From Laspinema olomoucense D3c (GTDB lineage: Bacteria > Cyanobacteriota > Cyanobacteriia > Cyanobacteriales > Laspinemataceae): a DNA stretch of 64,000 bases. Positions 8,234 through 25,693 of this stretch are shown piece after piece (positions within the stretch are counted from its first letter, which is position 1; each line of letters starts with the position of its first letter). The notes under the pieces were generated by a model, which ran no database searches, was not told the DNA's origin, and was given only the letters and a program-made list of their open reading frames with translations. The DNA lies in the NCBI RefSeq assembly GCF_025370725.1, contig NZ_JAMXEZ010000006.1; one strand, 5' to 3'. A program made the translations under genes and the position numbers.

Positions 8234-8460
8234 AAAAACGTGATATTGAAGCAATCAATCCCCTACTCGAAGGCAAATTTAGGGCACAATTACTCAAGGG
8301 TTGGGCGAGGGAGACGCTTGATCCCCTGGTGTTCGGGAACTTTGGCCCAAATCCAGTCCAGAACCCCTTCTGTACTCAGTCCCTGGCGATCCTTCTTCGT
8401 ATAGATGCCAGATTTGTAGAAAAATGTTGCAATAAAGGTATTGTTACGGATTAAAGACCC

Positions 8461-9567
8461 ATGACCCAACGAGTTTTGATTATTGGCGGACGGGGACGGA
8501 TCGGCAGCAGCATTGCCCAAGATTTGCTCGCCCATACCGATGCAAAAATTACGGTAACGGGACGGGACACGACACCGGGAAAATCGGTGGATGAGACCCT
8601 GGGCGATCGCGTGCAGTTTCGGGCGGTACATTTAGACGATCGCGCCGAGTTGGAACAGGCGATCGCCGAAAGCGATCTCGTCATCCATAGTGCTGGACCC
8701 TTCCATCACCGCGATGCCCGAGTCCTCCAACTCTGCATCGATCGTGGCGTCAACTATACCGATGTTAGCGATAGTCGAGGATTCACCCGTAGGGCGCTGG
8801 CATTGCAAGACTCCGCAGAAAAAGCAGGCGTAACCGCCATTATTAATACCGGCATTTTTCCCGGAATTTCTAATAGTATGGTTCGCCAAGGAGTCGAACA
8901 ACTTCAAGAAGCCGATCGCATCCATTTAAGCTATGTTGTCGGTGGGTCAGGAGGTGCGGGAGTCACGGTCATGCGCACCACCTTTTTAGGCTTACAAAAC
9001 CCCTTTGATGCGTGGATTGATGGGGAATGGAAGCAGGTGAAACCCTATACCGATCGCGAAACCATCGAATTTCCTCCACCCTACGGCAAGGTCGGAGTTT
9101 ACTGGTTTGATATGCCTGAAGCCTTCACCTTACCCGACTCCTTCCCGGTCAAAACTGCTATTACCAAATTTGGCACTTCCCCAGATTTGTACAACCATTT
9201 AACCTGGATGGTGGCTAATTTATGGCCTTCCGCCGCCCTGAAAAATTCTGCCGTAGTGGAGTTTTTATCCCAAGTTAGCTACCGCATGACGGGAGTTACC
9301 GACAAATTTAGCGGGACCGGAGTGGCAGTGCGATCGGAAGTTAACGGACGAAACGCCGAGGGAAAACCCGCCACCTTTTGTAGTGCAGTAGTTCATAACA
9401 GCGCCGCTGTTGCCACCGGAATCGGCACCGGGACGATCGCCGAACTGATGCTGAAAGGAAAACTCACCAAACCTGGGGTATGGCCCGTAGAACAAGCCTT
9501 ATCCACTCCGTTGTTTGAATCAATTATGACAACTCGGGGAATCGAGATAGCTCATCATTGGTTGTAA
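8461..9567 (+). CDS. Saccharopine dehydrogenase NADP-binding-domain protein (saccharopine-dehydrogenase-like oxidoreductase)
   Basis: N-terminal Rossmann VLIIGGRGRIGSSIAQDL and a Sacchrp_dh-like fold. The gene is 33 nt upstream of an aldehyde dehydrogenase. Confidence 0.65.
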   Translation: MTQRVLIIGGRGRIGSSIAQDLLAHTDAKITVTGRDTTPGKSVDETLGDRVQFRAVHLDDRAELEQAIAESDLVIHSAGPFHHRDARVLQLCIDRGVNYTDVSDSRGFTRRALALQDSAEKAGVTAIINTGIFPGISNSMVRQGVEQLQEADRIHLSYVVGGSGGAGVTVMRTTFLGLQNPFDAWIDGEWKQVKPYTDRETIEFPPPYGKVGVYWFDMPEAFTLPDSFPVKTAITKFGTSPDLYNHLTWMVANLWPSAALKNSAVVEFLSQVSYRMTGVTDKFSGTGVAVRSEVNGRNAEGKPATFCSAVVHNSAAVATGIGTGTIAELMLKGKLTKPGVWPVEQALSTPLFESIMTTRGIEIAHHWL

Positions 9568-9599
9568 GCTGTCCCTATCTATCTTAGCCCGGATTAACC

Positions 9600-11087
9600 A
9601 TGCACACTTGCCTGAATTATATTGATGGTCACTGGTTGCCCCCCGCCTCTGGGGAAACGATGGAAAGTCGTAATCCCGCCCACTGGCGCGAACTGGTTGC
9701 CACCTTTGGGCGATCGGGCGATATTGATATAGAAATGGCCGTGACTGCCGCCCGCCATGCTTATCGCACTTGGCGACGAGTTCCGGCACCCGAACGGGCC
9801 GAATTTTTATACCGCTTCGGGGAATTATTGTGCGATCGCAAAGCCGAACTCGCCTATTTAATGAGCCAAGAAATGGGAAAACCCCTGACTGAAGCCAATG
9901 GAGATGTCCAAGAAGGCATTGACTGCGCCTTTTATTATGCCGGAGAAGGTCGCCGTCTGTTCGGGCAAACCACCACCTCGGAAATGGATAATAAATTTGC
10001 CATGACTGTGCGAATGCCGATCGGCGTCTGTGGTTTAATCACCCCTTGGAACTTTCCCATTGCCATTCCCTGTTGGAAAGCCATGCCTGCCTTAGTCTGC
10101 GGCAATACCATCGTCCTGAAACCGTCGGAAGATACTCCGGCGGTGACTCACTTGCTGTTTGAAGTTTTCCATGATGCCGGATTTCCCCCGGGTGTCGTTA
10201 ACCTGGTGCATGGGTTGGGAGAAGAAGCGGGAAAAGCCTTGGTAGAACATCGTGACGTCAATTTAATTTCATTAACCGGGTCCTCACAAACCGGCGCAGA
10301 AGTGGCGGCAATCTGCGCCAAACAGCACAAGCGGGTTTGTTTAGAACTGGGAGGAAAAAATGCCCAGGTGGTGATGGAAGATGCAGATTTAGAATTAGCC
10401 TTGGAAGGCGCAATCTGGGGCGCTTTTGGCACGAGTGGGCAACGGTGCACCGCTACCAGTCGCCTCCTGCTGCATCGGGATATTAAGGATAAGTTTACCA
10501 AAATGCTGCTAGATCGCACTCGGGAACTCCGTTTGGGTCCCGGAACAGACCCCCATACCGACATCGGGCCGATTGTCAATGCCACACAACTGAATACGAT
10601 TGAAGAGTATATCGATGTCGCACATCAAGAGGGAGCGAAGATTTTAATCGGTGGCAATCGCACAACTGCCGGAACCCTCACGGGAGGATTCTTTTTTGAG
10701 CCAACTATCCTGGATGAGGTAACGCCCAATATGCGGGTCGCGCGGGAAGAGATTTTTGGTCCGGTGGTGGCGTTGATAGAAATTTCTTCCTTTGAGGAGG
10801 CGATCGCCATTCTCAATGATACCTCCTACGGTTTATCTTCCTCGGTTTATACTCGCGATGTGAATCGGGCCTTTCAAGCCATACGGGATATTGAAGCCGG
10901 AATCACTTATATTAACGGTCCTACCATTGGTGCCGAGGTCCATTTACCCTTTGGAGGCGTCAAACAAACCGGCAACGGACATCGTGAGGCGGGGGCAGCG
11001 GCCCTGGATGTGTTTACGGAATGGAAAACCGTCTATGTAGACTTTTCCGGACGCTTACAGCGGGCGCAAATCGACAATCGCGGGTGA
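9600..11087 (+). CDS. NAD(P)+-dependent aldehyde dehydrogenase
   Basis: 495 aa with the ALDH catalytic Glu motif (LELGGKNA) and catalytic Cys motif ([13 protein letters not shown]), plus GxGxxG-like cofactor loops. Confidence 0.9.
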
Positions 11088-11243
11088 TTGGATGGGAGAT
11101 AACTCCCGGATGAGTCGGGGAGGAGAATCAAATCAGAACAATTCTGTCCCGGACCGATTTGGCCTACAAATGGGCTATGATGACTTCTGGGCTAAGTGCC
11201 TTTTGAATCATTCGTTTTTGAACTCAAAACCGTAGGAGTAACG

Positions 11244-11825
11244 ATGTCTAATCCCCCCAAAATTCTCGCTTTTGCCGGAAGTGCTCGCGAAGCGTCATTT
11301 AATAAAAAACTCGTGCAAATTGCGGCCAATGGCGCGAGAAAAGCCGGTGCAGAGGTCACTTATATTGACCTGCGAGATTTTCCCATGCCTCTGTTTGACC
11401 AAGACTTAGAAGCAGCGGAGGGAATGCCACCCTATGCGCAGGAGTTGAAATCTCTATTCTTTACTCACCAAGGCTTGTTGATTGCTTCTCCGGAGTATAA
11501 TAGCACCATTAGTCCCCTGCTCAAAAATGCGATCGACTGGGTATCTCGTCCCGCGCCGGGGGAACCCATGCTGGCAGCTTTTTCAGGCAAACTCGTGGGA
11601 ATTATGAGTACCTCTCCGGGTGGTTTGGGGGGATTACGGGGTTTAGCTCAACTGCGCGAAATCCTGGCGAATATTAGTATGGTTGTGGTACCCCATCAAA
11701 TAGCCATTCCTCAAGCATTTGAAGCCTTTACGGAATCGGGAACATTAAACGACCCCCAAAAGCAAGAAGCGGTGGAAAATATCGGTGCAACAGTAGCACA
11801 AATGTTAACCAAATTAAACGCTTAA
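11244..11825 (+). CDS. NADPH-dependent FMN reductase family flavoprotein (ChrR/SsuE-like)
   Basis: Flavodoxin-like fold with motifs KILAFAGSAREASFNKKL and LIASPEYNSTISPLLKNAIDW. AGGAG 6 nt upstream of the ATG at 11244, so the longer ORF-track start at 11196 is unlikely. Confidence 0.75.
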   Translation: MSNPPKILAFAGSAREASFNKKLVQIAANGARKAGAEVTYIDLRDFPMPLFDQDLEAAEGMPPYAQELKSLFFTHQGLLIASPEYNSTISPLLKNAIDWVSRPAPGEPMLAAFSGKLVGIMSTSPGGLGGLRGLAQLREILANISMVVVPHQIAIPQAFEAFTESGTLNDPQKQEAVENIGATVAQMLTKLNA

Positions 11826-11845
11826 GTTGATAAAAACCCGCGTAT

Positions 11846-11883
11846 CAAAACCGGATTCATCTCTCCGATTGAATCCGGTTTTG
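11846..11883. terminator. Bidirectional intrinsic terminator between convergent genes
   Basis: 14-bp perfect stem CAAAACCGGATTCA / TGAATCCGGTTTTG with a 10-nt loop. A T-run follows on the plus strand (within the stem end) and GGGTTTTTA follows on the minus strand. It sits between the stops at 11825 (+) and 11900 (-). Confidence 0.6.
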
Positions 11884-11899
11884 ATACCTGGATTGGGGA

Positions 11900-14245
11900 T
11901 TAAAGTTCAATAATTTTTCTAATTAAGCGTAATAAATCGCGGGTTTTATAGGGTTTGGATAAATAGCTTGGGGAACTATTTTCTCCCGATTCTGAGAAGG
12001 GAAGATTGCTGACGAGTCCGCTCACGGCTATAATTTTAACCGAGGGATTAATTTTTTGGAGGGCTTTTAAAGTGAGTGCTCCATCCATTAATGGCATCAT
12101 CATATCCAGAATTACCACAGCAATTTCTGAGGACCGTTGACTGTAGAGAGAAATGGCCTCCATACCATCAGCGGCAGTTAAAACTTTATAGCCAAATTTT
12201 TGCAGGAGAGCTTGGGCAATTTCGCAGATGGCAACTTCATCATCTACGACTAAAATTAACTCACCTGCTCCAAAAGGGAGTTCGGTGGGTTCTGAAATGA
12301 GAGCTTGAGTTCCCTGAATTGCAGGCAAATACACGGTAAAGGCGGTGCCTTTACCCACTTGGCTAGAAACCAATAAAAACCCGCCATGATTTTTAACGAT
12401 GCCTCGAACTGTCGGCAATCCTAATCCTGTGCCTTTTCCTAATCCTTTGGTGGTAAAAAAAGGTTCAAATAATCGCTCTAAAATTTCTGGAGAGATGCCG
12501 GTTCCGGTATCTCTAACCGTGAGTTTAATATAAGAGCCAACTTTAGCCTCGGGGTCTAGGATTAAGTCGGATTTGGTGAGGATGATATTTTGCGCTTCAA
12601 TGGATAAAATGCCGCCGTTTGGCATGGCATCGCGAGCATTGACGGACAAATTCATCAGGATTTGATGGAGATGAGTTGGGTCCCCAGAAATTAACCAGAG
12701 TTTGGGGTCGATCGCCGTGGAAATTTCAATGGATTTGGGAAAAGTTTCGCGGGCGATCGCCGTAATTTCATCAATTAGGTGTTTGAGTTGGAGCAGGGCG
12801 CGATCGCCATCTAACCCTTTAGCAAATGAAAGCACTTGTTTGAGGAGGTCCGCGCCGCGCAAGGTATTAATTTCCAGCATAGAAATTAAGCGCATTTGCT
12901 GGGCGTTTAACGGGAACATTTGGAGCAGTTGCACCGCCCCCAAAATAGGGGTGAGAATGTTGTTTAAATCATGGGCAATGCCACTGGCTAAGGTGCCGAT
13001 ACTTTCCAGGCGTTGGGCGCGCAAAAACTGGGCTTCTAGCTGTTTTTTCTCGGTAATATCCGTATTCACCGCGAGGATGGAATAGGGGCGATCGCGCTCG
13101 TCCCGCACCAGGGTCTGGCGACTGGCAACAATGATAGATCTACCTGCTTTGGTGACTTGTTCTAACTCTCCGTGCCATTCGCCAGTGGTGAGGACCGTTT
13201 GCTCAGCGCTTTTGAGTTCTTCAGCGCTTTTAACATCAAAAAGGTGACTGCTGGTTTGGGCGATCGCTTCCTGGCGGGTCCATCCGTATAATTTTTCTGC
13301 CCCTTTATTCCAAAATAGAATATTTTGCTCAAGGTCTTTGACCCAAATTGCATCGGTGGCAACGTCCAGGAGAGCTGCCTGCTGGCGCACCTGTTCTTCG
13401 GCGCGTTTACGCTCAGTGATATCATATAACGCCCCAACAATTTCTTCACCCTGCTTCTCTCCCTTGCAAATCAGCTTCATTTCATCCCGCACCCATCGAT
13501 AGCTGCCGTCGGGATACTGGAACCGATACTCACTCAGGGAATAACCCGTCTGGTACAACTGTTTGAGGCTGGAGAATAGCTCCGGTGTATCATCCGGATG
13601 AATGCGATCGCGCCAAAACGAAGAGTCCCCTAAAATTTCTTCCGGTCGATATCCCAAATGTTCGAGAATATTCTCACTCACAAAGGTGGGACAATAGGGG
13701 TGATCAGGGGGGCAGGTATAAATCACCGCTGGACTAGAGGACAACAAGTATTGAAGCTGGGTTTGGGTAGCCATCAGCGCTGATTCAGTCCGTTTTAATT
13801 CTTTAATTTGATGTTGGAGTTCTGACTCCCGCAGGACCCGTTCTGTGACATCTTCAATGGTGGCGATCGTGCCAATCACCTGGGATGCTTCTACAATGGG
13901 AGCAATTTTCGCACTTTGTAGCATATAAGGCACTCCCTTATAAACATCCCCCGGGAGCATCGGTAACAAAAACCCATGTAAGCGCTGAGAGAGGAGGGCG
14001 ACTTGTCCCGCTAGAGCTTGGTAAAAAAATCGATCTAATCGCCGGTGCTTTAATTCCGGATAAATTTCGAGTAAATTTCTACCCACCACCCGATTCACAT
14101 TCAACCCACTATAAAGTTCCAGCCAATGATTCCAACTTTGGATATTCAACTCTGCATCGGTCGTAAATATCCCTCGGTCTGCTAAGTCATTGACCCAATG
14201 AAGGAGATCCTGATCAGAAGTGGGAGGGTCGGTGAAACTGCTCAT
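11900..14245 (-). CDS. PAS-domain sensor hybrid histidine kinase (PAS x2-3, HisKA, HATPase_c, C-terminal REC)
   Basis: 781 aa. PAS signatures, HisKA H-box (GIAHDLNNILTPILG), N/G1/G2 boxes (NLSVNARDAM, DTGTGI, GTGLGL) and a C-terminal receiver (LVVDDEVAICE...ILDMMMP). Confidence 0.85.
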   Translation of the reverse strand: MSSFTDPPTSDQDLLHWVNDLADRGIFTTDAELNIQSWNHWLELYSGLNVNRVVGRNLLEIYPELKHRRLDRFFYQALAGQVALLSQRLHGFLLPMLPGDVYKGVPYMLQSAKIAPIVEASQVIGTIATIEDVTERVLRESELQHQIKELKRTESALMATQTQLQYLLSSSPAVIYTCPPDHPYCPTFVSENILEHLGYRPEEILGDSSFWRDRIHPDDTPELFSSLKQLYQTGYSLSEYRFQYPDGSYRWVRDEMKLICKGEKQGEEIVGALYDITERKRAEEQVRQQAALLDVATDAIWVKDLEQNILFWNKGAEKLYGWTRQEAIAQTSSHLFDVKSAEELKSAEQTVLTTGEWHGELEQVTKAGRSIIVASRQTLVRDERDRPYSILAVNTDITEKKQLEAQFLRAQRLESIGTLASGIAHDLNNILTPILGAVQLLQMFPLNAQQMRLISMLEINTLRGADLLKQVLSFAKGLDGDRALLQLKHLIDEITAIARETFPKSIEISTAIDPKLWLISGDPTHLHQILMNLSVNARDAMPNGGILSIEAQNIILTKSDLILDPEAKVGSYIKLTVRDTGTGISPEILERLFEPFFTTKGLGKGTGLGLPTVRGIVKNHGGFLLVSSQVGKGTAFTVYLPAIQGTQALISEPTELPFGAGELILVVDDEVAICEIAQALLQKFGYKVLTAADGMEAISLYSQRSSEIAVVILDMMMPLMDGALTLKALQKINPSVKIIAVSGLVSNLPFSESGENSSPSYLSKPYKTRDLLRLIRKIIEL

Positions 14246-14282
14246 TTTACTAAGCCCTTGTTGACAGCTAACTATTACTCCA

Positions 14283-14927
14283 TTATGAAGAAAAAGAAAC
14301 GTTATGGGGTTCTATTTCCGCCTTGGCCCAGGTATCAATTTCTTCAAGTAATTTTTCTAAAGAAACCACACTCAATACCATCACTAAATACCCCTGAATT
14401 GAATTTTCCTTCATCCGAAACCCGGTATAAACCACCATTGCATAACGCATTTCCGCCTTACCAATGCTCAGAGAATGCAGTAACCCATCTAAGGCTTCTA
14501 AATGTAAACGAGGAACGGAAAAGGAGATTTGCATTTGTAACAAATTCCCGAAAACGCTCAGACAGGCGTTGAGTAAAATATTGCCAATTTCCGTCAGCAC
14601 TTCTGCCGCCGAGGCATCGAGGCGATCGCGATGGAGAGCCTGTTCAGGAGTCACTAACTCCGTCAGTTGCACCGCGCCGTCATAATTCAACAATAACAGG
14701 GCATTTCCCGAAACCCGTCCAGTAAAAATTTGCTGGACCGTGGCAATTTCCCCTTTAATAAACGTACCCAGTTTAGCGCTGAGTTCTTCAATGGGGTGAA
14801 GGGAAACCTGGGGAACCTCTAGTAAAACCCGATGACCTGTCAGTTCCGAGAGAGCCGCAGCCGTACGCGCGAAACCCATATTCAGCAGTTCGCTTAAGGC
14901 ATCCTGTTGGGCTTCTGTCAGCTTCAT
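14283..14927 (-). CDS. CheC-like CheY-P phosphatase (CheC/CheX/FliY family)
   Basis: 214 aa with both halves of the duplicated CheC signature D/S-x3-E-x2-N-x22-P: DALSELLN(x22)P and SAAEVLTEIGN(x22)P. Its start overlaps the stop of the upstream CheY-like gene (ATGA at 14924-14927). Confidence 0.65.
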   Translation of the reverse strand: MKLTEAQQDALSELLNMGFARTAAALSELTGHRVLLEVPQVSLHPIEELSAKLGTFIKGEIATVQQIFTGRVSGNALLLLNYDGAVQLTELVTPEQALHRDRLDASAAEVLTEIGNILLNACLSVFGNLLQMQISFSVPRLHLEALDGLLHSLSIGKAEMRYAMVVYTGFRMKENSIQGYLVMVLSVVSLEKLLEEIDTWAKAEIEPHNVSFSS

Positions 14928-15301
14928 CCTACCCCTCCCGGGATTCCTTTGAGGACCTGATTTACAGTATCCAGAACCGCCTCGGGATTATAGGGTTTAG
15001 TCAGATAACCCATTGCTCCGGCTGCCATCACAGAAGTCCGGGTCAGTTCTTGCAGGTCAGCAGTCGCCATGACGATGCGGGCGCGATCGTCGAAGGCGCG
15101 TAATTTTTCGAGCACTTCGGTTCCCTGCATATCTGGCATGGCTATATCCAGTAAAACAAGATCGGGTTTCTCTATATAGTAACTCTCAATGCCCATCAAT
15201 CCATCTTTGGCCTCAATAATCAAGTGGCCTTCAGTCTGGAGGATGCGTCGCAAGATTCCCCGGGAAAGGGTAGAGTCATCAACAATCAAAATTTTTGCCA
15301 T
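14924..15301 (-). CDS. Single-domain CheY-like response regulator. Start taken at the internal Met MAKILIVDD; the ORF-track start is 15334.
   Basis: Receiver motifs: ILIVDD (acidic pocket), LVLLDIAMPDM (phospho-Asp), T at 'MATAD' and K at 'YLTKP'. There is no output domain. Confidence 0.8.
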   Translation of the reverse strand: MAKILIVDDSTLSRGILRRILQTEGHLIIEAKDGLMGIESYYIEKPDLVLLDIAMPDMQGTEVLEKLRAFDDRARIVMATADLQELTRTSVMAAGAMGYLTKPYNPEAVLDTVNQVLKGIPGGVG

Positions 15302-15460
15302 TGCCTTGCGTCCTGGTATCGGATTGGCAGTCAAGCTCTAACCCTGGATTGAGGGAACTCACTTTAGAGTGGGTCCGCTTCATTTCCGCCCCAATTTGTT
15401 CATGCCCTGATCTTAACTCTGAATGGGAAGGGTGGATAGCGGTATCTTCAAAGTTCTCTT

Positions 15461-18400
15461 TCACAGGGTCGAGGCTAATTGAGCGAGGACTTTAGCTAAT
15501 TGGGCCGGTTCTACAGGTTTAGAGAGGTGTTTTTGAAAGCCTGCCAGGAGGGATTGAGCACGGTCCTCCTCTGAGGCAAAGGCAGTCAGAGCGATCGCCG
15601 GAATATGACTGTTGCTGTCACCTTCATGCTGCCGGATTTGGTGAATTAAGTGATATCCGTCTTCTCCAGGCATTCCAATATCGCTGACTAAAACATCAAA
15701 TTTGAATTGGTCCATCAGGGCGATCGCCTGGGAAACCGAAGTCACCACCCGAACCCGCACCCCATAATCTGTCAGCATCGCTTCCATTAAGTCTCCTGTA
15801 TCCGGGTCGTCATCCACCACCAACACCTGTAACCCATCCAGGGCCCACAGTTCACTCGATACACCGTCTTCCCGGGAAAAGGAAGTCTCATCGCCCTCGT
15901 CTTGTGGCGGTTTTGGCAGAATGGGTAACTGGACAATCAAGGTGGCTCCTTGGCCTTCGCCCTCACTCAAAGCCTCGACCTGGCCCCCGTGGAGTTCCAC
16001 TAGATGACGGACGATGGTCAATCCCAAGCCTAATCCACCATAGGCGCGAGTTGTAGAACTATCCGCTTGGCGGAATCCGTCAAAAATATGGGGGAGAAAG
16101 TCTGGATTGATGCCAATTCCCGTATCCTGAACCTGGAGGGTAATAAAGGAATCCGTCTGGGCGATCGCCACGGAAACTGAGCCTCCGCTAGGAGTAAACT
16201 TGACCGCATTAGACAATAAATTCCAAGCCACTTGCTGCAAGCGATCGCTATCTCCCGAAACCAAGGCGATCGCCGGGTCAAAGTTGAAATCAATATGAAT
16301 TCCCTTAGCTTCAGCCGTGGGAAGCATCGTATCCAGGGCAGCTTCCACAAGAGGAATTAAATTAACGGGACGCAGTTGTAAGCGAATTTTACCGCGAATG
16401 ATCCGGGAAACATCCAGGATATCCTCGATCAGATTAACCTGTTGTTTGGCATTGCGCTCGATGGTTTCTAATGCTTTTATCTTCGTGGTTTCATTGAGCT
16501 GGCGAGTGCGAAGCAACTGGGTCCAGCCCAGAATCGAATTGAGGGGCGTGCGAAGTTCATGGGAAACAATCGATAAAAACTCATCCTTGATTTGATTGGC
16601 TTTAACTAATTCTTCCGACTGTTGCTGCTGGAGGATGAGCGCTGCTTCCAGTTCGCGCTTATGGAAAGCCAGTTCCGAGGCGAGGACTTCTACATCAGAG
16701 CTTTGAGAGGTTAACTCCTGCTGTAACAAATCCCGCACCCGTTTAATGGAGATCGCATTCCCCACCCGCGCCCGCAGTTCTTCCACAGAAAAGGGTTTCA
16801 TCAGATAATCTTGCACCCCTTCGCGCAATAACTGTACCCGCAAATCATCATCATCTTTCGCCGTCAACATGATAATTGAAACATTGGCGAAATCGGGATT
16901 GCTGCGTAATAAAGACACCAGGCGATCACCCCCTATTTCTGGCATCATCACATCACTGATGATTAAATCTGGATTGAGGGTGAGTGCCTGTTCCAATCCT
17001 TGCTCCCCATTGAACGCTGTAGCAATTTGATAGTCCCGTCCCAAGATATCGCAGACAAAGCGATTCATTTCCGGGTTGTCTTCGACAATTAAAACCAGGG
17101 GTCGAGGGTCATTCGGGACCAGAATCCGGGGAGATGTCTCCACTTCTAGCTTCAGTTCCGCGATCGCCGCTTCTGCCAGATCATCCCACAGGGAAGATTC
17201 TGAAGCCGTCTTGGGGATATCTGGAAAAACCTCCATCGGAAGCTGGACGGTAAACATCGCCCCCCCTAGAGGTGCATCCGCAACCGTAATAGTTCCCTGA
17301 TGAAGTTCTACAAATTCCTTGACAATCGCCAACCCCAACCCAGTCCCGCCAAAGCGACGGGTGCTCCCTCCTTCAATTTGGCTAAACCGCTCAAAGATGG
17401 TTTCCCGCCGTTCCTGGGGGACCCCTGGACCACTATCTTGGATGGCGATCGTCACCGGCTTATTCTCCCCCTCGGCTAGAGAGAGAGAACAGTCAATTTT
17501 GCCACCCAGGGGTGTGAACTTAAACGCATTGGAGAGTAAGTTTAAAACCACCCGCTCGATTTTTTGGCGGTCCAATTGGGTCCCCAAGGACTCCGGAGTC
17601 TGGACGGTTAAGTTAATCTCCCGTTCAAAGGCTAATGCATCAAAGTTCGCCGCTACTTGGCGGATCAAACTGGCTAAGTCCAGAGGAACTGCTGCGAGTT
17701 CCATTTTGCCAGCTTCTAGCTTAGAGATATCCAGGAGATCATTAACCTGTTTGAGCAGCATTCGGGCATTGCGTTCGATTACGAGCAAGTCCCGGCGTTG
17801 TTCGTCCAAAAGTTGGCGATCGCCGATCAACTTCTGAGTCGGACCTAAAATCAACGCCAGGGGGGTCCGCAATTCGTGACTGACATTGGCGAAAAATTGG
17901 CTTTTGAGTTCATCCAGTTGCTTAAGTTGACGATAGAGCGCTTGCAGTTCTTGGTTTGCCCGTTCCAGATTCAAGCGGCGTTCTTCAGACATCTGAGCCG
18001 AGTCCAATAATTTTAACGCTCTGGGGATTAACGGGGGTAAAGAAATTGCTGTGGTAACTGAGGCGAGGGCAGTGAGCAATTTGACATTTCCTGATAACCA
18101 GTAGGTGGGATTCCACAAGGTCCATACCGCTAGAAAATGGGTCATGCTACAAGCGATGATAAAGGCACCGAAGGCCAAAAACATCCAATGAAAGGGGATA
18201 TTGCGCCGCGCTTTATAAACGAAATAAGCAAGGCTGGTAGATATGGCAACATAGGATATCCCAATCAGGCTATCTGAGGTAATATGAAGCCAGACTAAGG
18301 AGGGCTTCCACAGATAACAATGGCCGTGGGGGATAAAACCCTCCTTGGCGAAGAGATTCCTCAGCAGGTCGGGCCATAGGAGGAGAGTTAAGAGGGCCAG

Positions 18401-18532
18401 GAAGCTTAATATTATACCCCTCCCTAATAAGATTTTTTGGGGCTGGCTACTGTGGGTTTGGGGGGATTTTGTTAATCCTTGTCCCTCAGCCTCTGGATGG
18501 AAAGTTGCCAGATTAAAATTAGATTGTTTCAT
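15461..18532 (-). CDS. Hybrid sensor histidine kinase with an N-terminal ethylene-binding domain (ETR1-like, 3 TM). Architecture is EBD, HisKA-HATPase, REC, HisKA-HATPase, REC.
   Basis: Residues about 85-175 align position-by-position with the Arabidopsis ETR1 ethylene-binding domain (SD..I.I.Y...I....YFV.K....P..W....FGAFI..C...TH....W...). The copper-ligand Cys and His (ETR1 C65/H69) are conserved as C-x3-H in IIACSMTHFLAVWT. Two complete kinase cores follow (HELRTP H-boxes and G-boxes) and two receivers (LVLIVEDN..., VLVVDDDPDT...). Confidence 0.8.
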   Translation of the reverse strand: MKQSNFNLATFHPEAEGQGLTKSPQTHSSQPQKILLGRGIILSFLALLTLLLWPDLLRNLFAKEGFIPHGHCYLWKPSLVWLHITSDSLIGISYVAISTSLAYFVYKARRNIPFHWMFLAFGAFIIACSMTHFLAVWTLWNPTYWLSGNVKLLTALASVTTAISLPPLIPRALKLLDSAQMSEERRLNLERANQELQALYRQLKQLDELKSQFFANVSHELRTPLALILGPTQKLIGDRQLLDEQRRDLLVIERNARMLLKQVNDLLDISKLEAGKMELAAVPLDLASLIRQVAANFDALAFEREINLTVQTPESLGTQLDRQKIERVVLNLLSNAFKFTPLGGKIDCSLSLAEGENKPVTIAIQDSGPGVPQERRETIFERFSQIEGGSTRRFGGTGLGLAIVKEFVELHQGTITVADAPLGGAMFTVQLPMEVFPDIPKTASESSLWDDLAEAAIAELKLEVETSPRILVPNDPRPLVLIVEDNPEMNRFVCDILGRDYQIATAFNGEQGLEQALTLNPDLIISDVMMPEIGGDRLVSLLRSNPDFANVSIIMLTAKDDDDLRVQLLREGVQDYLMKPFSVEELRARVGNAISIKRVRDLLQQELTSQSSDVEVLASELAFHKRELEAALILQQQQSEELVKANQIKDEFLSIVSHELRTPLNSILGWTQLLRTRQLNETTKIKALETIERNAKQQVNLIEDILDVSRIIRGKIRLQLRPVNLIPLVEAALDTMLPTAEAKGIHIDFNFDPAIALVSGDSDRLQQVAWNLLSNAVKFTPSGGSVSVAIAQTDSFITLQVQDTGIGINPDFLPHIFDGFRQADSSTTRAYGGLGLGLTIVRHLVELHGGQVEALSEGEGQGATLIVQLPILPKPPQDEGDETSFSREDGVSSELWALDGLQVLVVDDDPDTGDLMEAMLTDYGVRVRVVTSVSQAIALMDQFKFDVLVSDIGMPGEDGYHLIHQIRQHEGDSNSHIPAIALTAFASEEDRAQSLLAGFQKHLSKPVEPAQLAKVLAQLASTL

Positions 18533-18790
18533 AAGGGGTTAATTCATGAACATCAGGAATTTTTTTCCGAAGCGTGTTCGGAATTGAGAAGGGTTAAATT
18601 TATGGAGTCTGATCTCCCATAAATTATCTTCCACACTCAAACCGTAGGGATCGGTTTTAATTCTGAGTAAATTGGGAGAGGCTAATTTTAAGAAAATAGG
18701 GGTCCGGCAAACCGTGCTTCCCTCAGTTCAATTCTAGCCTTGAAACATTCAGAACTTCTCAGGATCAAGCGTAAATCTGAAATTCGGGGA

Positions 18791-21700
18791 TTAGATTAAG
18801 CCGGTTTGTTGGGCGATTTCGGCGAGGGCAGTTGCTAATTTCAAGGGTTCCACAGGTTTAGCAACATGAAGATGAAATCCGGCTAAAAGGGCCTGTTGAC
18901 GATCTTCTTCCCGAGCGAAAGCGGTCAAGGCGATCGCCGGAATGGGCTTAGAGTATCCCGCCTCGCGCTGGCGAATTTTGCGGATCAAACCATAGCCGTC
19001 TTCATCGGGCATTCCGATATCGGAAATCAAGATATCATGGCGCGATCGCTCGGTGGCGGCTAGGGCTTCGGCAGCAGATAAAACCACCGTCGTCTTTACT
19101 CCATATTCCGCTAGGACTTGAGCAATTAGCTCTCCCGTATCGCGATCGTCATCCACCACCAGCACCTGTAAACCGGCGAGGTTAAAGGAGTGGTTCCCCA
19201 TTGTTTTTTTGTCCCAAGTCAGGGAATCGGGATCCAAAAGAAGGTTCTGGGAGACCCCGATAGGGAGGGCCACGGTAAAGGTTGAACCTGTGTCTTCTCC
19301 CTGGCTGAAGGCATGGACGGTTCCCCCATGCAGTTCGACCAAATAGCGCACAATGGTTAAGCCCAGACCGAGACCCCCGTGGGTGCGGGTGGAGGAACTG
19401 TTGGCTTGGCGAAAGCCCTCAAAGACGTGAGGCAGGAAGTCCGGACTAATTCCCATCCCCGTATCCTGCACCCGAAACTCCATGTAATCGCCCACCCGCT
19501 CGATCGCCACCGTCACCCGTCCGCCATTGGGGGTGAATTTTACGGCATTGGAGAGCAGATTCCAGACCACTTGATGGAGGCGGCTACTATCCCCTAAAAT
19601 GGGCTGTCCGTTTGAGTTGAACTGGGTGTGGATTTCAATGGATTTGGCTTCCGCTGCCGGAGTCAGGGTGGCGATCGCTTGTTCCACCAGAGTTTCCAAA
19701 TACAACGGAACTCGGGTCAGGCGAATCTTCCCGCGCACAATCCGGGAGACATCGAGGATATCATCAATCAGGTTCACCTGATGCTTAGCATTCCGTTCGA
19801 TGGTTTCCAGGGCTTTTTGTTGCGTCTCTTCCTTCAGGGTGCGAGAACGGAGCAATTGCGCCCAGCCGAGAATGGAATTCAGGGGAGTTCGCAATTCATG
19901 AGAGACGATCGCCAAAAATTCATCCTTGAGTCGGTTGGCTTTTTCGGCGCGATCGCGGGCTTGTTCCTGGGCCTCATAGAGGTTGGCCCGGTCAATGGCC
20001 AGGGCCACGCGATCGGCCACCAGTTGCAGCAAATAGACATCTTCTGCCATGAATTCTCGCGGCGACTCGGTACTGATATGGATCACCCCGAGTACCCGGT
20101 CTTGTAAGAGCATCGGTGCGCCCATAATTGACTCTATTTTTTTGTGTCGGAACAGGGGACTAATCACTTGAGTATGAGCATCGCGCTCAATCCGCATCGG
20201 TTGCCGAGTCTGGGCAATTTTTCCCGCGAACCCTAGGCCCATCGGGATCGGGATACTGGTTGAGAGGGGTTCGTCTAAATCTAAGCCTTTTGTGGCGGTA
20301 ACGATCAGGGCCGTTCCCTCTTCGTTGACCAATAAAATTACCGCAGCATCCACTTGTAAGACAGCGGTGAGGCGATCGAGCAACTCTTCGAGCAGATCAT
20401 GGAGAGACAAAGGGGCGATCGCCACATCCACAATCGCTTGTAACCGATGCACCATAGTCGTCGCCCGTTCTGACAAAATTCGGGCCGCTTTCTCCCGTTC
20501 CAACAACTCCATGCGCTCTTGCTGTGCCTGCTTGCGTTCGTGAATGTCCGTATTTGTCCCAAACCACTTGACAATCTCCCCCTGAGAATCTCGCATGGGC
20601 ACCGCTAATCCCAGATGCCAGCGGTAAGCGCCATCGCAACCCCGACGCATTCTGGCTTCAATTTCATAGGGTTGTCCGTTTTCCAAGCAAACGGTCCACT
20701 TTTTGCGACATTCGGCCAAGTCGTCGGGATGCACGATAGGCTCCCATCCCCAGCCTAAAAGTTCCGTCGGGCTCAAGCCGGTGTACTCACTCCAGCGGTG
20801 ACTCAGGTAATCTAGGGTCCCATCCGGGAGGGCGGTCCAGACCATTTGCGGAATCGCTTCACTCAGGAATCGATAATACTGCTCGCTGGCTTCGGCTTGA
20901 GTTCGGGCGGCTTGTTCCAGTTGCAAGAGTTGAATCCGTTCCGCTTCCGCCTCTTTGAGGGGGGTAATATCGATCGCCGACCCGATGAACCCGAGTAAAT
21001 TGCCCTCGGGACTTAACCGGGGAACCCCAGTTTCTAGCATCCACCGATAGGCTCCATCGGCTCGTTGTAGGCGGTATTCTTGGGTAAAGGGTTGGCTTGC
21101 CTTCACTGCTTGTTGGTAACTCAAGACGCACTGGACCTGCTCCTCGGGATGGATCCGGTCCCGATGGTTGAGGCCAGGGTCTGCTTCTAGTAATGCCCCA
21201 ATGAAGTTTAATCCCCACTTATTTAAAAAGGTCCATTGTCCCTGGCAATCGGCTACCCACAACAGCACCGGGGCCGTATCTGCCATATCCCTGAACCGTT
21301 TTTCACTATCGCGCAAGGCTTCCTCGGCCTGTTTCCGTTGGGTAATATCGTAGCGGATGGCCAAATATTGGAAGGGCTTTCCATGACTATCTAAAAACGG
21401 TACAATTACTGTATCCACCCAATAATAAGTCCCATCTTTGGCCCGATTCTTAATTTCTCCTCGCCACACTTCCCCCTGCGCAATGGTCCGCCAGAGATTG
21501 AGAAAAAATTCTTTAGAATGATAGCCGGAATTGATCAACCGATGGTTTTGTCCAATCAATTCTGTTTGGGAATATTTAGAAATTTCCAGAAATTTTTCGT
21601 TAACATATTGAATTGTTCCTTTAGCATCAGTGGTGACAACAATCGCTGATTTATCTAACGCAAATTGGAAATCGGATAATTCTTTCAAGGTTTGTTGGAG

Positions 21701-22897
21701 GTCGGCTTCTGCCCGTTTGCGAGCGCTGATGTCCCGCACTGATGCCATCCATCCTGAGTGACCCAAATAGAGTGTCGGTTGAATAACTGCTTCTAGGATC
21801 ACCGTTGTCCCATCTTTTTTGATCCCCATCACTTCCGATGCTCCCTCCTGTGTCCATCGGCAGTCGTCCAACATTAACTCGACTGTCTCCTCGGTAAAAA
21901 TATAGGCTAAGGGCCTTCCTACCAGTTCGTCCGGGTCATATCCAAATATCTTTTCCAAGGAGGGATTTACGGCAATCATGCGATCGCCCTGATAAAATAA
22001 AATCCCTTCCACTGTTGATTCAGCGAGGGTTTTAAACCGTTGTTCACTGGCTCTGAGTGCCGCCTCTGCCTGCTTGCTTTGGGTGATATCCCGGCTAATT
22101 TTAGAGAAGCCGTAAAGATTACCTTGGTTATCGTATAAAGGCGTAATTACTTCATGGACCCAAAAGCGGGTTCCGTCCTTTCGCCGTCGTTCTCCTTCTT
22201 GTTCCAACCGTCCCTGTTCTACTGCCTGTTTTAAGTCTCGTTCCGGTTGACCTTGGGCCACTGCTTCGGGGGGATAAAAGCAGGAAAAATGTTGTCCAAT
22301 AATTTCCTCGGCTGCATAGCCTTTGAGGTGTTTTGCTCCCAGATTCCAGCTATTTACTCGTCCATCGGGCCCAAGCATATAAAGTCCATAATCTTCGATG
22401 CCCTCTACCAACAACTGAAACTGTTGTTCGCTTCGCCGAAAAGATTCAAGATGTCTTTGAGCGATTCTGGCACTTTGGGCGCACTGTTCTTTCTTTTGTT
22501 GCAATGAACCGATGGCGATCGCAATTGCCGAACCTTCCAGCAGAAATAAAATTAACCGGAATGTTTGGCCCGGACTGCTTTCTATTTGGGGATAAAGCGG
22601 AGATAAAAATAAGTAACTGCTGGCTAATCCAGCCCCCAGGGTGGCCATCAGTCCCGCTTTCGTACCCCCAAACCAGGCACTAGCCATAATCGCTGCAAAA
22701 TACACCAAAAATGGGCTTTCCCGTAAGATTAAGGGTGCTAGGGCGCTTTTAACCGCCGTGGCGAGGGTGACACTGATGAGGGCAATGCCCAGTGGGTGCA
22801 GGAATTGTAGCAATGGCCTTGAATGCTGGTTTCTGGGATAGCAAAGCTGAGGCAGTTTGCTAAACAGACGCAGGAGGACAGATGGACTGATTTTCAT
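18791..22897 (-). CDS. Large multi-sensor hybrid histidine kinase: KdpD-like TM (DUF4118) N-terminus, multiple PAS/PAC domains, GAF, HisKA, HATPase_c, REC. Exact start uncertain.
   Basis: 1368 aa. The N-terminal 4-TM region resembles the KdpD sensor TM domain. There are about 5 PAS/PAC repeats (GxxExRxRxKDG-type PAC motifs recur), a GAF-like segment, H-box AIVSHELRTPLNSILGW, and a C-terminal receiver VLVVDDDRDT...ISDIGMPDEDG. The C-terminal kinase+REC module is about 65% identical to that of the 15461..18532 kinase. Confidence 0.85.
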   Translation of the reverse strand: MKISPSVLLRLFSKLPQLCYPRNQHSRPLLQFLHPLGIALISVTLATAVKSALAPLILRESPFLVYFAAIMASAWFGGTKAGLMATLGAGLASSYLFLSPLYPQIESSPGQTFRLILFLLEGSAIAIAIGSLQQKKEQCAQSARIAQRHLESFRRSEQQFQLLVEGIEDYGLYMLGPDGRVNSWNLGAKHLKGYAAEEIIGQHFSCFYPPEAVAQGQPERDLKQAVEQGRLEQEGERRRKDGTRFWVHEVITPLYDNQGNLYGFSKISRDITQSKQAEAALRASEQRFKTLAESTVEGILFYQGDRMIAVNPSLEKIFGYDPDELVGRPLAYIFTEETVELMLDDCRWTQEGASEVMGIKKDGTTVILEAVIQPTLYLGHSGWMASVRDISARKRAEADLQQTLKELSDFQFALDKSAIVVTTDAKGTIQYVNEKFLEISKYSQTELIGQNHRLINSGYHSKEFFLNLWRTIAQGEVWRGEIKNRAKDGTYYWVDTVIVPFLDSHGKPFQYLAIRYDITQRKQAEEALRDSEKRFRDMADTAPVLLWVADCQGQWTFLNKWGLNFIGALLEADPGLNHRDRIHPEEQVQCVLSYQQAVKASQPFTQEYRLQRADGAYRWMLETGVPRLSPEGNLLGFIGSAIDITPLKEAEAERIQLLQLEQAARTQAEASEQYYRFLSEAIPQMVWTALPDGTLDYLSHRWSEYTGLSPTELLGWGWEPIVHPDDLAECRKKWTVCLENGQPYEIEARMRRGCDGAYRWHLGLAVPMRDSQGEIVKWFGTNTDIHERKQAQQERMELLEREKAARILSERATTMVHRLQAIVDVAIAPLSLHDLLEELLDRLTAVLQVDAAVILLVNEEGTALIVTATKGLDLDEPLSTSIPIPMGLGFAGKIAQTRQPMRIERDAHTQVISPLFRHKKIESIMGAPMLLQDRVLGVIHISTESPREFMAEDVYLLQLVADRVALAIDRANLYEAQEQARDRAEKANRLKDEFLAIVSHELRTPLNSILGWAQLLRSRTLKEETQQKALETIERNAKHQVNLIDDILDVSRIVRGKIRLTRVPLYLETLVEQAIATLTPAAEAKSIEIHTQFNSNGQPILGDSSRLHQVVWNLLSNAVKFTPNGGRVTVAIERVGDYMEFRVQDTGMGISPDFLPHVFEGFRQANSSSTRTHGGLGLGLTIVRYLVELHGGTVHAFSQGEDTGSTFTVALPIGVSQNLLLDPDSLTWDKKTMGNHSFNLAGLQVLVVDDDRDTGELIAQVLAEYGVKTTVVLSAAEALAATERSRHDILISDIGMPDEDGYGLIRKIRQREAGYSKPIPAIALTAFAREEDRQQALLAGFHLHVAKPVEPLKLATALAEIAQQTGLI

Positions 22898-23263
22898 TAT
22901 GATTCAGAGGAGTCTGGATCTTGGGGATGGCACTTTCAAGGCGGGAACAGGAGAACGTTAAGAAACCACTTCATCATAAAGAGAGGTGCTTTTTTCCTTT
23001 TTTTGTGCTAAGCCCAGGTTCCGATTTAACCTCAGCCTCTTTTTCGTTCTATTCCTACCATTTTAGAATTTGGACTTGATTTCTGGGGAAAAAACCGATA
23101 AAACCCACTTAACCCGGATTTTTCAAGTAAATATACTTAGTTTGACTCATTCTATTTTCTCCTTTAATTGCTGTGAAGTCAACTCCAATTGCTACCCGGT
23201 CAACTGTAATTACATTAGAATTTCGTCGAGTAGGCATTAGTAAATCCTAAGAGTGGAAAGGCG

Positions 23264-24577
23264 ATGGATGAAATTTTAACGGCCCAATCCTTACCTCGGA
23301 GGCCCTATTTGGTCACCCCCTTACCGGGACCCCGCGCCCAAGAACTGGTCCAGCGCGATCGCGCCGTCACCTCTCCCTCCTATACCCGAGGATACCCCCT
23401 AGTCGTAGCCCGAGGAGAGGGCTGCTCGATCCAGGATGTGGATGGCAATGTCTTCCTTGACTTTACCGCAGGCATCGCCGTAACCGCCACAGGACACGCT
23501 CATCCCCAGGTGGTGCAAGCGATTCAAGCTCAGGCAGCCCAGTTGCTACATATGTCGGGGACCGATTTTTACTATGAACCAATGGTGGAACTGGCGGAAC
23601 AGTTGGTAAAACTTGCCCCATTTCCCGCCGGTGCCAAGGTCTTTTTCAGCAATTCCGGGGCGGAATCCAACGAAGGGGCGCTCAAATTAGCCCGCTATGC
23701 TACGGGTAAGTCTCAGATTGTGGCTTTTCTGGGGGCTTTCCACGGGCGCACCTTCGGCGCGATGTCCCTCACGGGTTCAAAGGCGGTGCAACGTCAAGGA
23801 TTTGGGCCATTATTACCCGGAATCACCCATATTCCCTACGGCACTCATGCCAGCTTAGATTACCTGGAGTTTCAACTGTTTAAGACGGTGTTACCCCCGG
23901 AGGAACTGGCGGCGATCATAGTTGAACCGATTCAAGGGGAGGGGGGATATTTGGTTCCAGAAGATGGATTCCTCGCCCGAATTCGCGAGATTTGCAGCCG
24001 CCATCACTGTTTGATGGTGGTGGATGAAGTACAATCGGGCATGGGTCGCACGGGCAAGTTGTTCGCGGTGGAACATTGGAATGTTATGCCCGATATCATT
24101 ACCCTGGCGAAAGGGATTGCTAGTGGATTACCCCTGGGGGCAATTCTCGCTCGTCCGGAATTGATGACCTGGCCCCCGGGTTCTCACGCTACTACCTTTG
24201 GCGGGAATCCGGTTGCTTGTGCCGCAGCTAATGCGACGTTACAGGTCCTCACGCAAGGGGCGATCGCCAATGCCACTCAGATGGGGGAGTTATTACAGGA
24301 GGGGTTGAGGAAATTAGCCATACCCTATCCCCAACTCTCACAACCGCGAGGGAAGGGGTTAATGGTGGCGGTGGATTTACTGGATAAATCCGGTGGTTTT
24401 GACCCGTCCTTACGCGATCGCGCGATCGATGAGGCATTCTATCACGGACTTTTACTGCTGGGTTGTGGCAAATCTGCGATCCGCTTTTGTCCCCCTTTGG
24501 TGGTTGATGCTGAACAAATTCAGGTGGCGTTAGAGATTCTCGATGCCTGTTTCGCCAAACTGTTTGCCACACTCTAA
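23264..24577 (+). CDS. Class-III PLP-dependent aminotransferase (GabT/ArgD/LAT-like omega-aminotransferase)
   Basis: 437 aa. Class-III aminotransferase architecture with the PLP-lysine region in the [16 protein letters not shown] context (the lysine at TLAKGI is the likely Schiff-base Lys). Confidence 0.8.
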
Positions 24578-24730
24578 CGCCTTGGGGTTGCTGCATAGGG
24601 TTACAGGGACAAGAAACAGGGTTTCTTAACCACAATGTTGGGGATTACTGAGATCTTGCACCCGTTGCAACAACCGGCGGGGGTTTAAACGATTGGCGGT
24701 GTTTATCTCACAATTCCTGGAGGGATTCCG

Positions 24731-25693
24731 ATGAAACAAGCATTAGTCGCCCAAGCGCTATGGCATCAACTCTGGCTAGACTACAGTCACCGTGTTCCCT
24801 ACGCCCGAATTTATGAGGGGGTCATCTCGGAAGCGGGGGGAACTGTTGCGAATGATCATATCGCCTTTCGGTCCCTGGCCCTCTCTATTGAAACGGCGAT
24901 CGGAACGGTAAATTTAGGCATTCGTCACCTGGAACAGGTTCTCGATGGGTTGGGTTATGTGCAAATGGGACAGTTAGCTTTTCCTACCCAACACCTCTAT
25001 GCGCGTCACTATCGCCATCCACAACAGGACGAGTTTGATTTGCCGAAACTGTTTATCAGTGAGTTAATTGTGGATCAGTTGCCGCCGGAGGTGCGATCGC
25101 CTCTGGAAGAGACGGTACAGTGGGGTTTAGATATAGAGGGACTATTAGAGTGCCAGTCTGCTATTACAGACTTAAGGGCGATCGATACTCACCCCACAGA
25201 ACCTCACATTTTGGCCCAGCGACTCAAATGTCTGTTTGTTCGTCCCTGGATGCCTCCGTTGCGATCGCACCTGGAAACAGTCAATGCCGTGAGTCAGTAT
25301 GGGGCCTGGGTCTTGCTGCATGGCTATGCCGTCAACCATTTTACCGGCTATGTGAACCGCCAAAATACCCCCGCCTACCCAGATATCGAAACCACTGCGC
25401 AAGCACTTCGCAATCGAGGGGTTCCCATGAAAGCTGAGATTGAAGGAAGTGCTCAAGTCGGGTTACGTCAAACTGCAACCCAGGCGATACAGGAATCTGT
25501 CACTATCCGCAGTCGGCCCGAGGGTCCTTTTGTGCAAATTCCTTGGACTTATGCCTATTATGAAATTGCCCAACGATTTGCGATCGCACCCACCCCGGGA
25601 CATCCTGAACTCTTTCAAGGGTTCCTAGGCCCCAACGCCGCCCAACTCTTTGAAATGACCCGTTCCCAGGGAACCATCACCCCTCGGGGGTAG
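24731..25693 (+). CDS. DUF1338-family protein, possibly a 2-oxoadipate dioxygenase/decarboxylase (HglS/YdcJ-like). Assignment from memory and needs an HMM check.
   Basis: 320 aa soluble protein with conserved His-containing segments (NDHIAFRS, ...HGYAVNHFTGY...). Size and motifs are reminiscent of the DUF1338 VOC-like metalloenzyme family. It sits 154 nt downstream of the aminotransferase on the same strand. Confidence 0.4.
   Translation: MKQALVAQALWHQLWLDYSHRVPYARIYEGVISEAGGTVANDHIAFRSLALSIETAIGTVNLGIRHLEQVLDGLGYVQMGQLAFPTQHLYARHYRHPQQDEFDLPKLFISELIVDQLPPEVRSPLEETVQWGLDIEGLLECQSAITDLRAIDTHPTEPHILAQRLKCLFVRPWMPPLRSHLETVNAVSQYGAWVLLHGYAVNHFTGYVNRQNTPAYPDIETTAQALRNRGVPMKAEIEGSAQVGLRQTATQAIQESVTIRSRPEGPFVQIPWTYAYYEIAQRFAIAPTPGHPELFQGFLGPNAAQLFEMTRSQGTITPRG

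Follow-up and report, generated by a model that had tools for sequence, protein, structure and literature searches.

HglS of Pseudomonas putida, an Fe(II)-dependent enzyme of the DUF1338 family, is specific for 2-oxoadipate (2OA), and a single arginine is essential (Thompson et al. 2020, PMC7286885). The residue (Arg74 in HglS and Arg64 in the rice enzyme FLO7) binds the distal carboxylate of 2OA and sets the specificity; HglS, YdcJ of Escherichia coli and two plant homologues all form 2-hydroxyglutarate (2HG) from 2OA, and the same activity was predicted for all family members that keep the arginine (PMC7286885). In Mycobacterium tuberculosis and Rhodococcus opacus the DUF1338 gene adjoins a predicted lysine (class-III) aminotransferase, its neighbours in other Actinobacteria include aldehyde dehydrogenases and transaminases, and a brief remark extends this to cyanobacterial DUF1338 neighbourhoods, where aldehyde dehydrogenases and aminotransferases were also mentioned (Thompson et al. 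2019). Here we describe such a neighbourhood in the cyanobacterium Laspinema olomoucense D3c. The stretch analysed, referred to as the window, comprises 64,000 nt of contig NZ_JAMXEZ010000006.1, and its three core genes, encoding an aldehyde dehydrogenase (ALDH), a class-III aminotransferase (AT) and a DUF1338 protein, form a module that is conserved in cyanobacteria.

Conserved linkage and identity of the core genes

The three core genes of the window are the following:

9600-11087, + strand: NAD(P)-dependent aldehyde dehydrogenase (ALDH), core gene 1 (495 aa; PF00171)
23264-24577, + strand: class-III (omega-type) pyridoxal phosphate-dependent aminotransferase (AT), core gene 2 (437 aa; PF00202)
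24731-25693, + strand: DUF1338/HglS-family Fe(II) oxygenase, core gene 3, short form (320 aa; PF07063)

An earlier inspection of the letters alone (the sequence-only reading) had grouped these genes with a saccharopine-dehydrogenase-like (SDH-like) gene into two separated pairs, which together would form a saccharopine-type set for lysine degradation. All four open reading frames (ORFs) are present where it placed them, each on the plus strand. The gaps within the pairs are 32 nt between the SDH-like gene and ALDH (given as 33) and 153 nt between AT and DUF1338 (given as 154), an agreement to one base, and Pfam supports all four broad families that had been named (Sacchrp_dh_NADP, 82 bits; Aldedh, 576 bits; Aminotran_3, 414 bits; HGLS/DUF1338, 89.6 bits).

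For comparison across cyanobacteria, one genome per GTDB species was searched with an alignment of 16 cyanobacterial DUF1338 proteins as the query. This gave 304 loci with a DUF1338 relative, from which the best 80 of 304 were taken with up to 10 kb per side, plus four loci fetched earlier; 82 DUF1338 loci were analysed by tblastn with the window proteins and by all-against-all clustering of every flanking ORF. Only two families recurred as neighbours of DUF1338 in these 82 cyanobacterial loci, namely AT and ALDH. In 69 of the 82 loci AT preceded DUF1338 on the same strand, with 72-79% identity to the window AT; the gap between the two genes was determined for 68 loci and was below 500 nt in 63 of them. 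ALDH lay upstream on the same strand in 32/82 loci, with 72-78% identity to the window ALDH, and was present in 25 of the 54 non-Laspinema loci having at least 9 kb of upstream sequence. Contiguous ALDH-AT-DUF1338 arrangements were found in 11 loci (for example L024, L025, L036, L052, L066, L073 and L083), while every other flanking gene family occurred in no more than 9 of the 82 loci. The named loci span Nostocales, Pleurocapsales, Chroococcales, Leptolyngbyaceae and several Oscillatoriales genera (such as Laspinema, Microseira and Argonema), and the AT-DUF1338 pair is present in Anabaena variabilis and Nostoc. Because the pairing recurs across cyanobacterial orders and the other flanking genes do not, it goes far beyond chance; and since no other flanking family recurs in more than nine loci, we take the linkage to reflect function and not synteny by descent. 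ALDH, AT and DUF1338 thus form a conserved module across filamentous and pleurocapsalean cyanobacteria.

On PF07063 (gathering score 25) the DUF1338 protein scored 89.6 bits, over profile positions 47-298 of 386; the match is partial because the window protein is a short form. In sequence searches of the PDB it matched 3LHO (1e-26), rice HglS 6W1K (1.6e-13) and 3IUZ (5e-11). An AlphaFold2 (AF2) model (mean predicted local distance difference test (pLDDT) 82) retrieved 3IUZ and 3LHO in Foldseek with an E value of 1e-17 (TMq 0.62-0.70), followed by rice HglS with bound 2OA (6W1K, 7e-15), P. putida HglS (6W1H, 3e-11) and YdcJ (2RJB, 1e-10), and after all solved DUF1338 structures ranked HPPD and hydroxymandelate synthase (HMS). 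The predicted model recovers the VOC-type beta-barrel fold of the solved HglS structures. The putative metal triad, H43 (DHIAFR), H203 (NHFT) and E278 (YYEIAQR), is invariant in the 16 cyanobacterial DUF1338 sequences and aligns with the DH, NH and E metal-ligand positions of 6W1K and 3LHO. R47, four residues past the first histidine, is likewise invariant in the 16 sequences and aligns with the arginine of the DHfAFR motif of 6W1K. Both the assignment of the last ORF to DUF1338 and the conservation of its metal ligands, which the sequence-only reading had singled out for checking, were borne out. By sequence and predicted fold, the protein has every hallmark of a 2OA-to-2HG synthase.

The AT matched PF00202 with 414 bits and scored 623 bits on the NCBIfam model NF004426/PRK05769, above the cutoff of 552, which places it by sequence among the ornithine/lysine omega-aminotransferases of the archaeal type. 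With PDB 7VNO (368 bits), which we take to be PH1423 of Pyrococcus horikoshii from the naming style of the depositor, it shares about 50% identity. A published table gives PH1423 as an ornithine delta-aminotransferase with L- and D-lysine as further substrates, and TK2101 of Thermococcus kodakarensis as an Orn/Lys omega-aminotransferase with 2-oxoadipate among its acceptors (PMC9986279). The ALDH matched PF00171 with 576 bits, and its translation contains ELGGKN and GQRCTA, the motifs of the catalytic Glu and Cys. Its best NCBIfam models were alpha-ketoglutaric semialdehyde dehydrogenase (KGSADH; NF042993, 544 bits against a cutoff of 770) and 2,5-dioxovalerate dehydrogenase (NF052305, 524 against 750). 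The closest solved relative is an ALDH, presumably from Thermus.

Laspinema thus has this module too, but in a form interrupted by the insertion of about 12 kb that hold an FMN reductase gene and five signalling genes. In most other genomes the signalling block is missing between ALDH and AT, the two genes being contiguous or separated by unrelated inserts; these inserts carry lineage-specific genes (Uma2-like, toxin-antitoxin, HTH and small VOC proteins). Further pathway genes (a transporter, a regulator or a D-2HG dehydrogenase) were sought in the variable ALDH-AT inserts, and none recurs. The proposal that the two separated pairs belong together therefore holds for ALDH, AT and DUF1338 and fails for the SDH-like gene, which was found in 0/82 DUF1338 loci, including the 32 with ALDH. 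The other features of the region are listed below:

8461-9567, + strand: SDH-like NAD(P) oxidoreductase, saccharopine-dehydrogenase superfamily (368 aa; PF03435)
11196-11825, + strand: NADPH-dependent FMN reductase, ArsH-like (209 aa; PF03358, 149 bits)
11900-22897, - strand: five-gene signalling block between the two gene pairs (from Pfam domains)
22898-23263, no strand: intergenic region of 366 nt between the divergent DUF4118 kinase and AT genes (read from the sequence)

A candidate lysine route and its competitors

On balance we lean towards the view that the three-gene module breaks lysine down to 2HG by way of 2-aminoadipate semialdehyde, 2-aminoadipate and 2OA. AT would first remove the epsilon-amino group, converting lysine and 2-oxoglutarate into 2-aminoadipate semialdehyde, or its cyclic form piperideine-6-carboxylate (P6C), and glutamate, and ALDH would then oxidise the semialdehyde/P6C to 2-aminoadipate. 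Transamination of 2-aminoadipate with 2-oxoglutarate would give 2OA and a second glutamate; the catalyst may be AT once more, as the example of TK2101 suggests, or an unlinked transaminase. DUF1338, with Fe(II) and O2, would convert 2OA into D-2-hydroxyglutarate and CO2, and an unlinked dehydrogenase would return 2HG to 2-oxoglutarate. Both lysine nitrogens would end in glutamate without the use of a 2-oxoacid dehydrogenase complex. The common gene order ALDH-AT-DUF1338 corresponds to the second, third and fourth of these steps. The identities of the genes, their family membership, the conserved active-site residues and the conserved linkage are observations; the substrates, the order of the steps and the dual role of AT we infer. 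Cyanobacteria are not known to have the 2-oxoglutarate dehydrogenase (2-oxoacid dehydrogenase) complex, so a CoA-independent exit from 2OA would be physiologically sensible. A sharper form of the proposal, which we offer tentatively and hold to be rather doubtful, is a minimal CoA-independent route from lysine to 2-oxoglutarate in one three-gene operon, in which a single archaeal-type AT would remove both amino groups, a KGSADH-like ALDH would replace ALDH7 and a short-form HglS would bypass the 2-oxoacid dehydrogenase.

A reciprocal search with the AT alignment in metagenomic contigs, in which 80 AT loci were examined, bears on which enzyme acts first. Both AT relatives of at least 70% identity were directly followed by DUF1338, and none of the 78 AT relatives at 49-62% identity, on contigs of diverse G+C, had DUF1338 nearby. 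An ALDH match was found in 15 of the 80 AT loci, mostly directly upstream of AT, the others being weaker (34-38% identity) and downstream; four of the upstream ALDHs share 52-64% identity with the window ALDH and are, judged by sequence, its probable orthologues. The neighbours of the non-cyanobacterial ALDH-AT pairs included no informative partner gene. An aminotransferase gene beside an ALDH gene is a classic arrangement for the oxidation of omega-amines to carboxylates. An omega-amine-oxidising AT-ALDH pair appears to be the older unit, to which DUF1338 was added in cyanobacteria, and this favours AT acting first, as an omega-aminotransferase feeding ALDH. The occurrence of actinobacterial DUF1338 genes next to lysine aminotransferases supports the proposed route. 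An entry initiated by an aminotransferase, as in lysine aminotransferase (LAT) pathways, is a better fit to the evidence than a saccharopine entry. In the metagenomic loci L093-L098, L115, L122, L148 and L165, ATs of 50-62% identity lack a nearby DUF1338 and often have an ALDH gene immediately in front, as a stand-alone ALDH-AT pair.

Several observations weigh against the lysine route. The three core genes are dispersed in some genomes, and neither the window nor the ALDH-AT inserts link them to a lysine riboswitch, a lysine transporter or a D-2HG dehydrogenase. The AT is no close relative of actinobacterial LAT, which is not among its 56 PDB matches with E values of 1e-60 or below, and it scores 307 bits against a cutoff of 650 on NF049976, the model for the 2-aminoadipate transaminase of the P. 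putida type. Its family includes racemases as well as enzymes that prefer GABA (gamma-aminobutyrate) or ornithine. Assignment of the ALDH to the ALDH7 subfamily, that of 2-aminoadipate semialdehyde dehydrogenase (AASADH), had been named as a check and did not stand: the protein scores 388 bits against a cutoff of 730 on the P6C dehydrogenase model NF050084, and eight ALDH families score higher. Judged by sequence, the nearest family is that of 2-oxoglutarate-semialdehyde dehydrogenase (GucD type), which it approaches without being a member (544/770). In the literature consulted we found no paper documenting this lysine route in cyanobacteria, and the chemistry of the module is deduced throughout.

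The SDH-like gene offers another entry, through a saccharopine-type route or as a lysine 6-dehydrogenase that feeds the adjacent ALDH, with the distant AT and DUF1338 completing the pathway; we regard this as quite improbable. The gene is separated from ALDH by only 32 nt on the same strand, after the strong terminator-like hairpin at 8200-8227, and its fold superfamily includes saccharopine reductase, the SDH domain of AASS (the bifunctional animal enzyme) and the L-lysine dehydrogenase of P. horikoshii. Its N-terminal NADP-binding domain matched PF03435 with 82 bits (gathering score 25.1), while the C-terminal domain PF16653 reached 25.4 bits, under the gathering score of 31, and solved saccharopine dehydrogenases were matched by phmmer against the PDB with E values of 1.6e-5 to 5.6e-4. 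Its structural model has a pLDDT of 70 (medium confidence), with low confidence in region 197-242, and in Foldseek the best matches were carboxyspermidine dehydrogenases (1e-16), ahead of P. horikoshii L-lysine dehydrogenase (3ABI, 3e-15) and saccharopine reductase (1FF9, 4e-14), all of them only 13-19% identical. By sequence and model, the protein is placed in the saccharopine-reductase superfamily only broadly. Homologues of about 366 aa are well conserved among cyanobacteria, with 65-74% identity across genera and differing contexts: the gene follows a CrtO-like gene in a Microcoleus genome (L085, 4098-7095), has unrelated neighbours in Funiculus and Phormidium, and lies on a separate contig from DUF1338 in Microseira wollei and Planktothrix FACHB-1355. 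One other SDH-like/ALDH adjacency was found, in a relative with a 74%-identical SDH-like protein (L090, 1914-11104), where the block from CrtO and the antiporter to the SDH-like gene and ALDH is syntenic with the window. Because the whole CrtO-antiporter block is syntenic, this adjacency reflects shared ancestry and not independent recurrence; it is real in the window and limited to the Laspinema lineage. The Pfam-scanned ORFs of the window, which were the larger ones (the remainder being under about 310 aa), include no AlaDH/PNT-type lysine-ketoglutarate reductase (LKR). With the C-terminal domain below threshold, the solved saccharopine dehydrogenases distant, no LKR in the window and the gene absent from all 82 loci, the "saccharopine-type" label is unsupported; that the protein supplies 2-aminoadipate semialdehyde in this lineage alone is likewise quite improbable. 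Of the route as first proposed, the downstream part leading to 2HG is plausible, and the saccharopine entry is not. The annotation "saccharopine dehydrogenase" should not be taken here to imply a saccharopine pathway.

Two further explanations retain the core genes and change their substrates. AT and ALDH could be a general pair for omega-amino acids, taking GABA to succinate or ornithine to glutamate, with DUF1338 acting on another 2-oxoacid or being unrelated, which we consider unlikely. ALDH-AT pairs without DUF1338 do occur in diverse non-cyanobacterial metagenomic contigs, the closest characterised relatives of the AT prefer ornithine and also accept GABA, and urease genes lie nearby in three Oscillatoriales lineages. 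GABA-transaminase models also give the AT 356-363 bits, and succinate-semialdehyde dehydrogenase (SSADH) models give the ALDH 384-388 bits; these scores, however, are well under the cutoffs and under the scores of other families, and betaine-aldehyde dehydrogenase (BADH) models gave lower or likewise sub-cutoff values. The sequence-only reading had held that clustering of the ALDH with SSADH or BADH, together with a last ORF outside DUF1338, would point to a GABA-shunt-like or unrelated function; the ALDH is outside ALDH7 but also outside SSADH and BADH, and the last ORF is clearly DUF1338. A general omega-amino-acid pair would moreover leave the tightest linkage, that of AT and DUF1338 (69/82 loci), unexplained, and DUF1338 keeps the arginine for the distal carboxylate of 2OA, whereas catabolism of GABA or ornithine gives no such substrate; the urease adjacency is confined to related lineages. 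The remaining explanation, which we judge improbable, reverses the order of deamination: the alpha-amino group would be lost first through an unlinked oxidase or transaminase, AT would convert 6-amino-2-oxohexanoate into 2-oxoadipate semialdehyde, and the KGSADH-like ALDH would yield 2OA for DUF1338. It has the merit that the best-scoring ALDH families, 2-oxoglutarate-semialdehyde and 2,5-dioxovalerate dehydrogenases, act on the C5 homologue of 2-oxoadipate semialdehyde, that JGI gives these names to several ALDH orthologues, and that no 2-aminoadipate transaminase is needed. Yet the ALDH stays under the equivalog cutoff (544/770), the linked genes include none for an alpha-deaminating enzyme, cyclisation turns the intermediate into piperideine-2-carboxylate (P2C), and the order ALDH-AT-DUF1338 matches the sequence 2-aminoadipate semialdehyde, 2-aminoadipate, 2OA more simply. 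We know of no described pathway that uses this alpha-first order.

The lysine route that begins with transamination of the epsilon-amino group would, if true, explain how both lysine nitrogens and the carbon skeleton are recovered by organisms that have neither a 2-oxoglutarate nor a 2-oxoadipate dehydrogenase complex. The module provides three concrete and widely conserved genes that can be tested in tractable strains, in an area of cyanobacterial metabolism that is poorly defined.

Regulation and surroundings of the module

An Rfam scan of 8000-26500 (E values up to 1) gave no lysine riboswitch or other convincing element. The sub-threshold matches were Guanidine-I at 25902-25978 on the plus strand (25 against 63 bits, E 0.72), lying over the start of a 106-aa ORF, CRISPR-DR28 at 26112-26135 on the plus strand (32.4 against 35 bits, E 0.018) and one snoRNA; the Guanidine-I and CRISPR-DR28 matches are probably due to chance. 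The NtcA motif GTA-N8-TAC was found 1, 1 and 0 times upstream of ALDH, AT and DUF1338, respectively, over all loci, against 1.6, 3.5 and 2.4 expected, and none was present in the intergenic regions of the window. In the promoter and terminator scan the counts were at the level of shuffled sequence, and the lone strong hairpin was that at 8200-8227, after the antiporter gene. The 22898-23263 region, with sigma-70-like matches on both strands at chance frequency, is presumed to be the promoter region for AT-DUF1338.

The signalling block consists of a PAS hybrid kinase, a CheC/CheX-like protein, a receiver, an ETR1_N double hybrid kinase and a DUF4118-PAS-GAF hybrid kinase. The last of these is the one member of the block that was met again between ALDH and AT, at 57% identity, and this in Microcoleus FACHB-672 only; a role as dedicated sensor of the module was considered and is at most tentative. 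The ETR1_N kinase (15461-18532, - strand, 1023 aa) has an ETR1_N match of 121 bits, two HisKA/HATPase modules and two receiver domains. The FMN reductase scores 70 bits on the ArsH model, far under the cutoff of 292. Its orthologues lie near the module in L003 and L013 (80% identity) and directly after ALDH in L014 (65%); its association with the module is confined to a few lineages.

The flanks of the window are typical of a cyanobacterium, with CrtO, cation/proton antiporters and the urease alpha subunit. CrtO (4896-6593) lies in the neighbourhood of the SDH-like gene in Laspinema and its relative, which may be plain synteny or a hint to the function of the SDH-like protein. The module has the urease alpha gene (26194-27927, - strand) as a neighbour in Laspinema, in Microcoleus FACHB-672 and in an uncultured relative (L004, 1-1601; L014, around 2476), and not in Nostocales or Pleurocapsales. 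A functional role for this adjacency was considered and set aside; confined to Laspinema relatives, L004 and L014, it is treated as likely lineage synteny.

Farther downstream, a homologue of the Major Vault Protein (MVP) is encoded at 31619-34267 on the plus strand (882 aa), with Vault repeats at 223 bits, the MVP shoulder at 186 bits and Vault_2/3/4 matches. Its neighbours on the minus strand are a 670-aa CHAT-domain protein (28187-30199) and a 352-aa ORF without a Pfam match (30230-31288). Three consecutive ORFs of about 160 aa each occupy 40968-42690 (- strand), followed by a 597-aa ORF without a Pfam match (42806-44599, - strand) and an 892-aa protein with a two-partner-secretion (TPS) domain (44756-47434, - strand).

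Comparison with known systems

The HglS-dependent system of P. putida for the catabolism of 2-aminoadipate and D-lysine, composed of the ALDH AmaB, the class-III aminotransferase PP_4108, HglS (PP_5260) and the D-2HG dehydrogenase PP_4493 (Thompson et al. 2019/2020), includes the same three enzyme classes as the cyanobacterial module. The DUF1338 fold, the His-His-Glu triad and the specificity arginine are shared, but the cyanobacterial DUF1338 protein is short (320 aa) and only about 16% identical to P. putida HglS. Nor are the partners of the same type, the window AT being unlike PP_4108 (307/650) and the window ALDH unlike AmaB and ALDH7 (388/730). The cyanobacterial genes form one cluster, and no D-2HG dehydrogenase or pipecolate oxidase is linked to them. 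Compared with the actinobacterial loci in which DUF1338 adjoins a lysine aminotransferase, the components are again non-orthologous, since the window AT is of the archaeal PRK05769 type and the ALDH is nearest to KGSADH.

The saccharopine pathway of plants and animals (LKR/SDH, that is AASS, ALDH7 and, in plants, HglS/FLO7) runs through the same intermediates as the route proposed here, 2-aminoadipate semialdehyde, 2-aminoadipate, 2OA and 2HG, and the window DUF1338 belongs to the same family as the last plant enzyme, rice FLO7 (6W1K). It differs in that the window holds neither LKR nor a bona fide saccharopine dehydrogenase, and in that its ALDH is not ALDH7. The archaeal enzymes PH1423 and TK2101 fall in the same NCBIfam family as the window AT and transaminate L-/D-ornithine and L-/D-lysine; they serve proline and ornithine metabolism without linkage to DUF1338, unlike the window AT.

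HglS chemistry and the HglS-dependent catabolism of lysine and 2-aminoadipate are thus already known, and what would be new is a cyanobacterial pathway with a non-orthologous ALDH and AT. If true, a major photosynthetic phylum would join the known range of HglS chemistry, and the ALDH and aminotransferase steps would both be a case of non-orthologous replacement.

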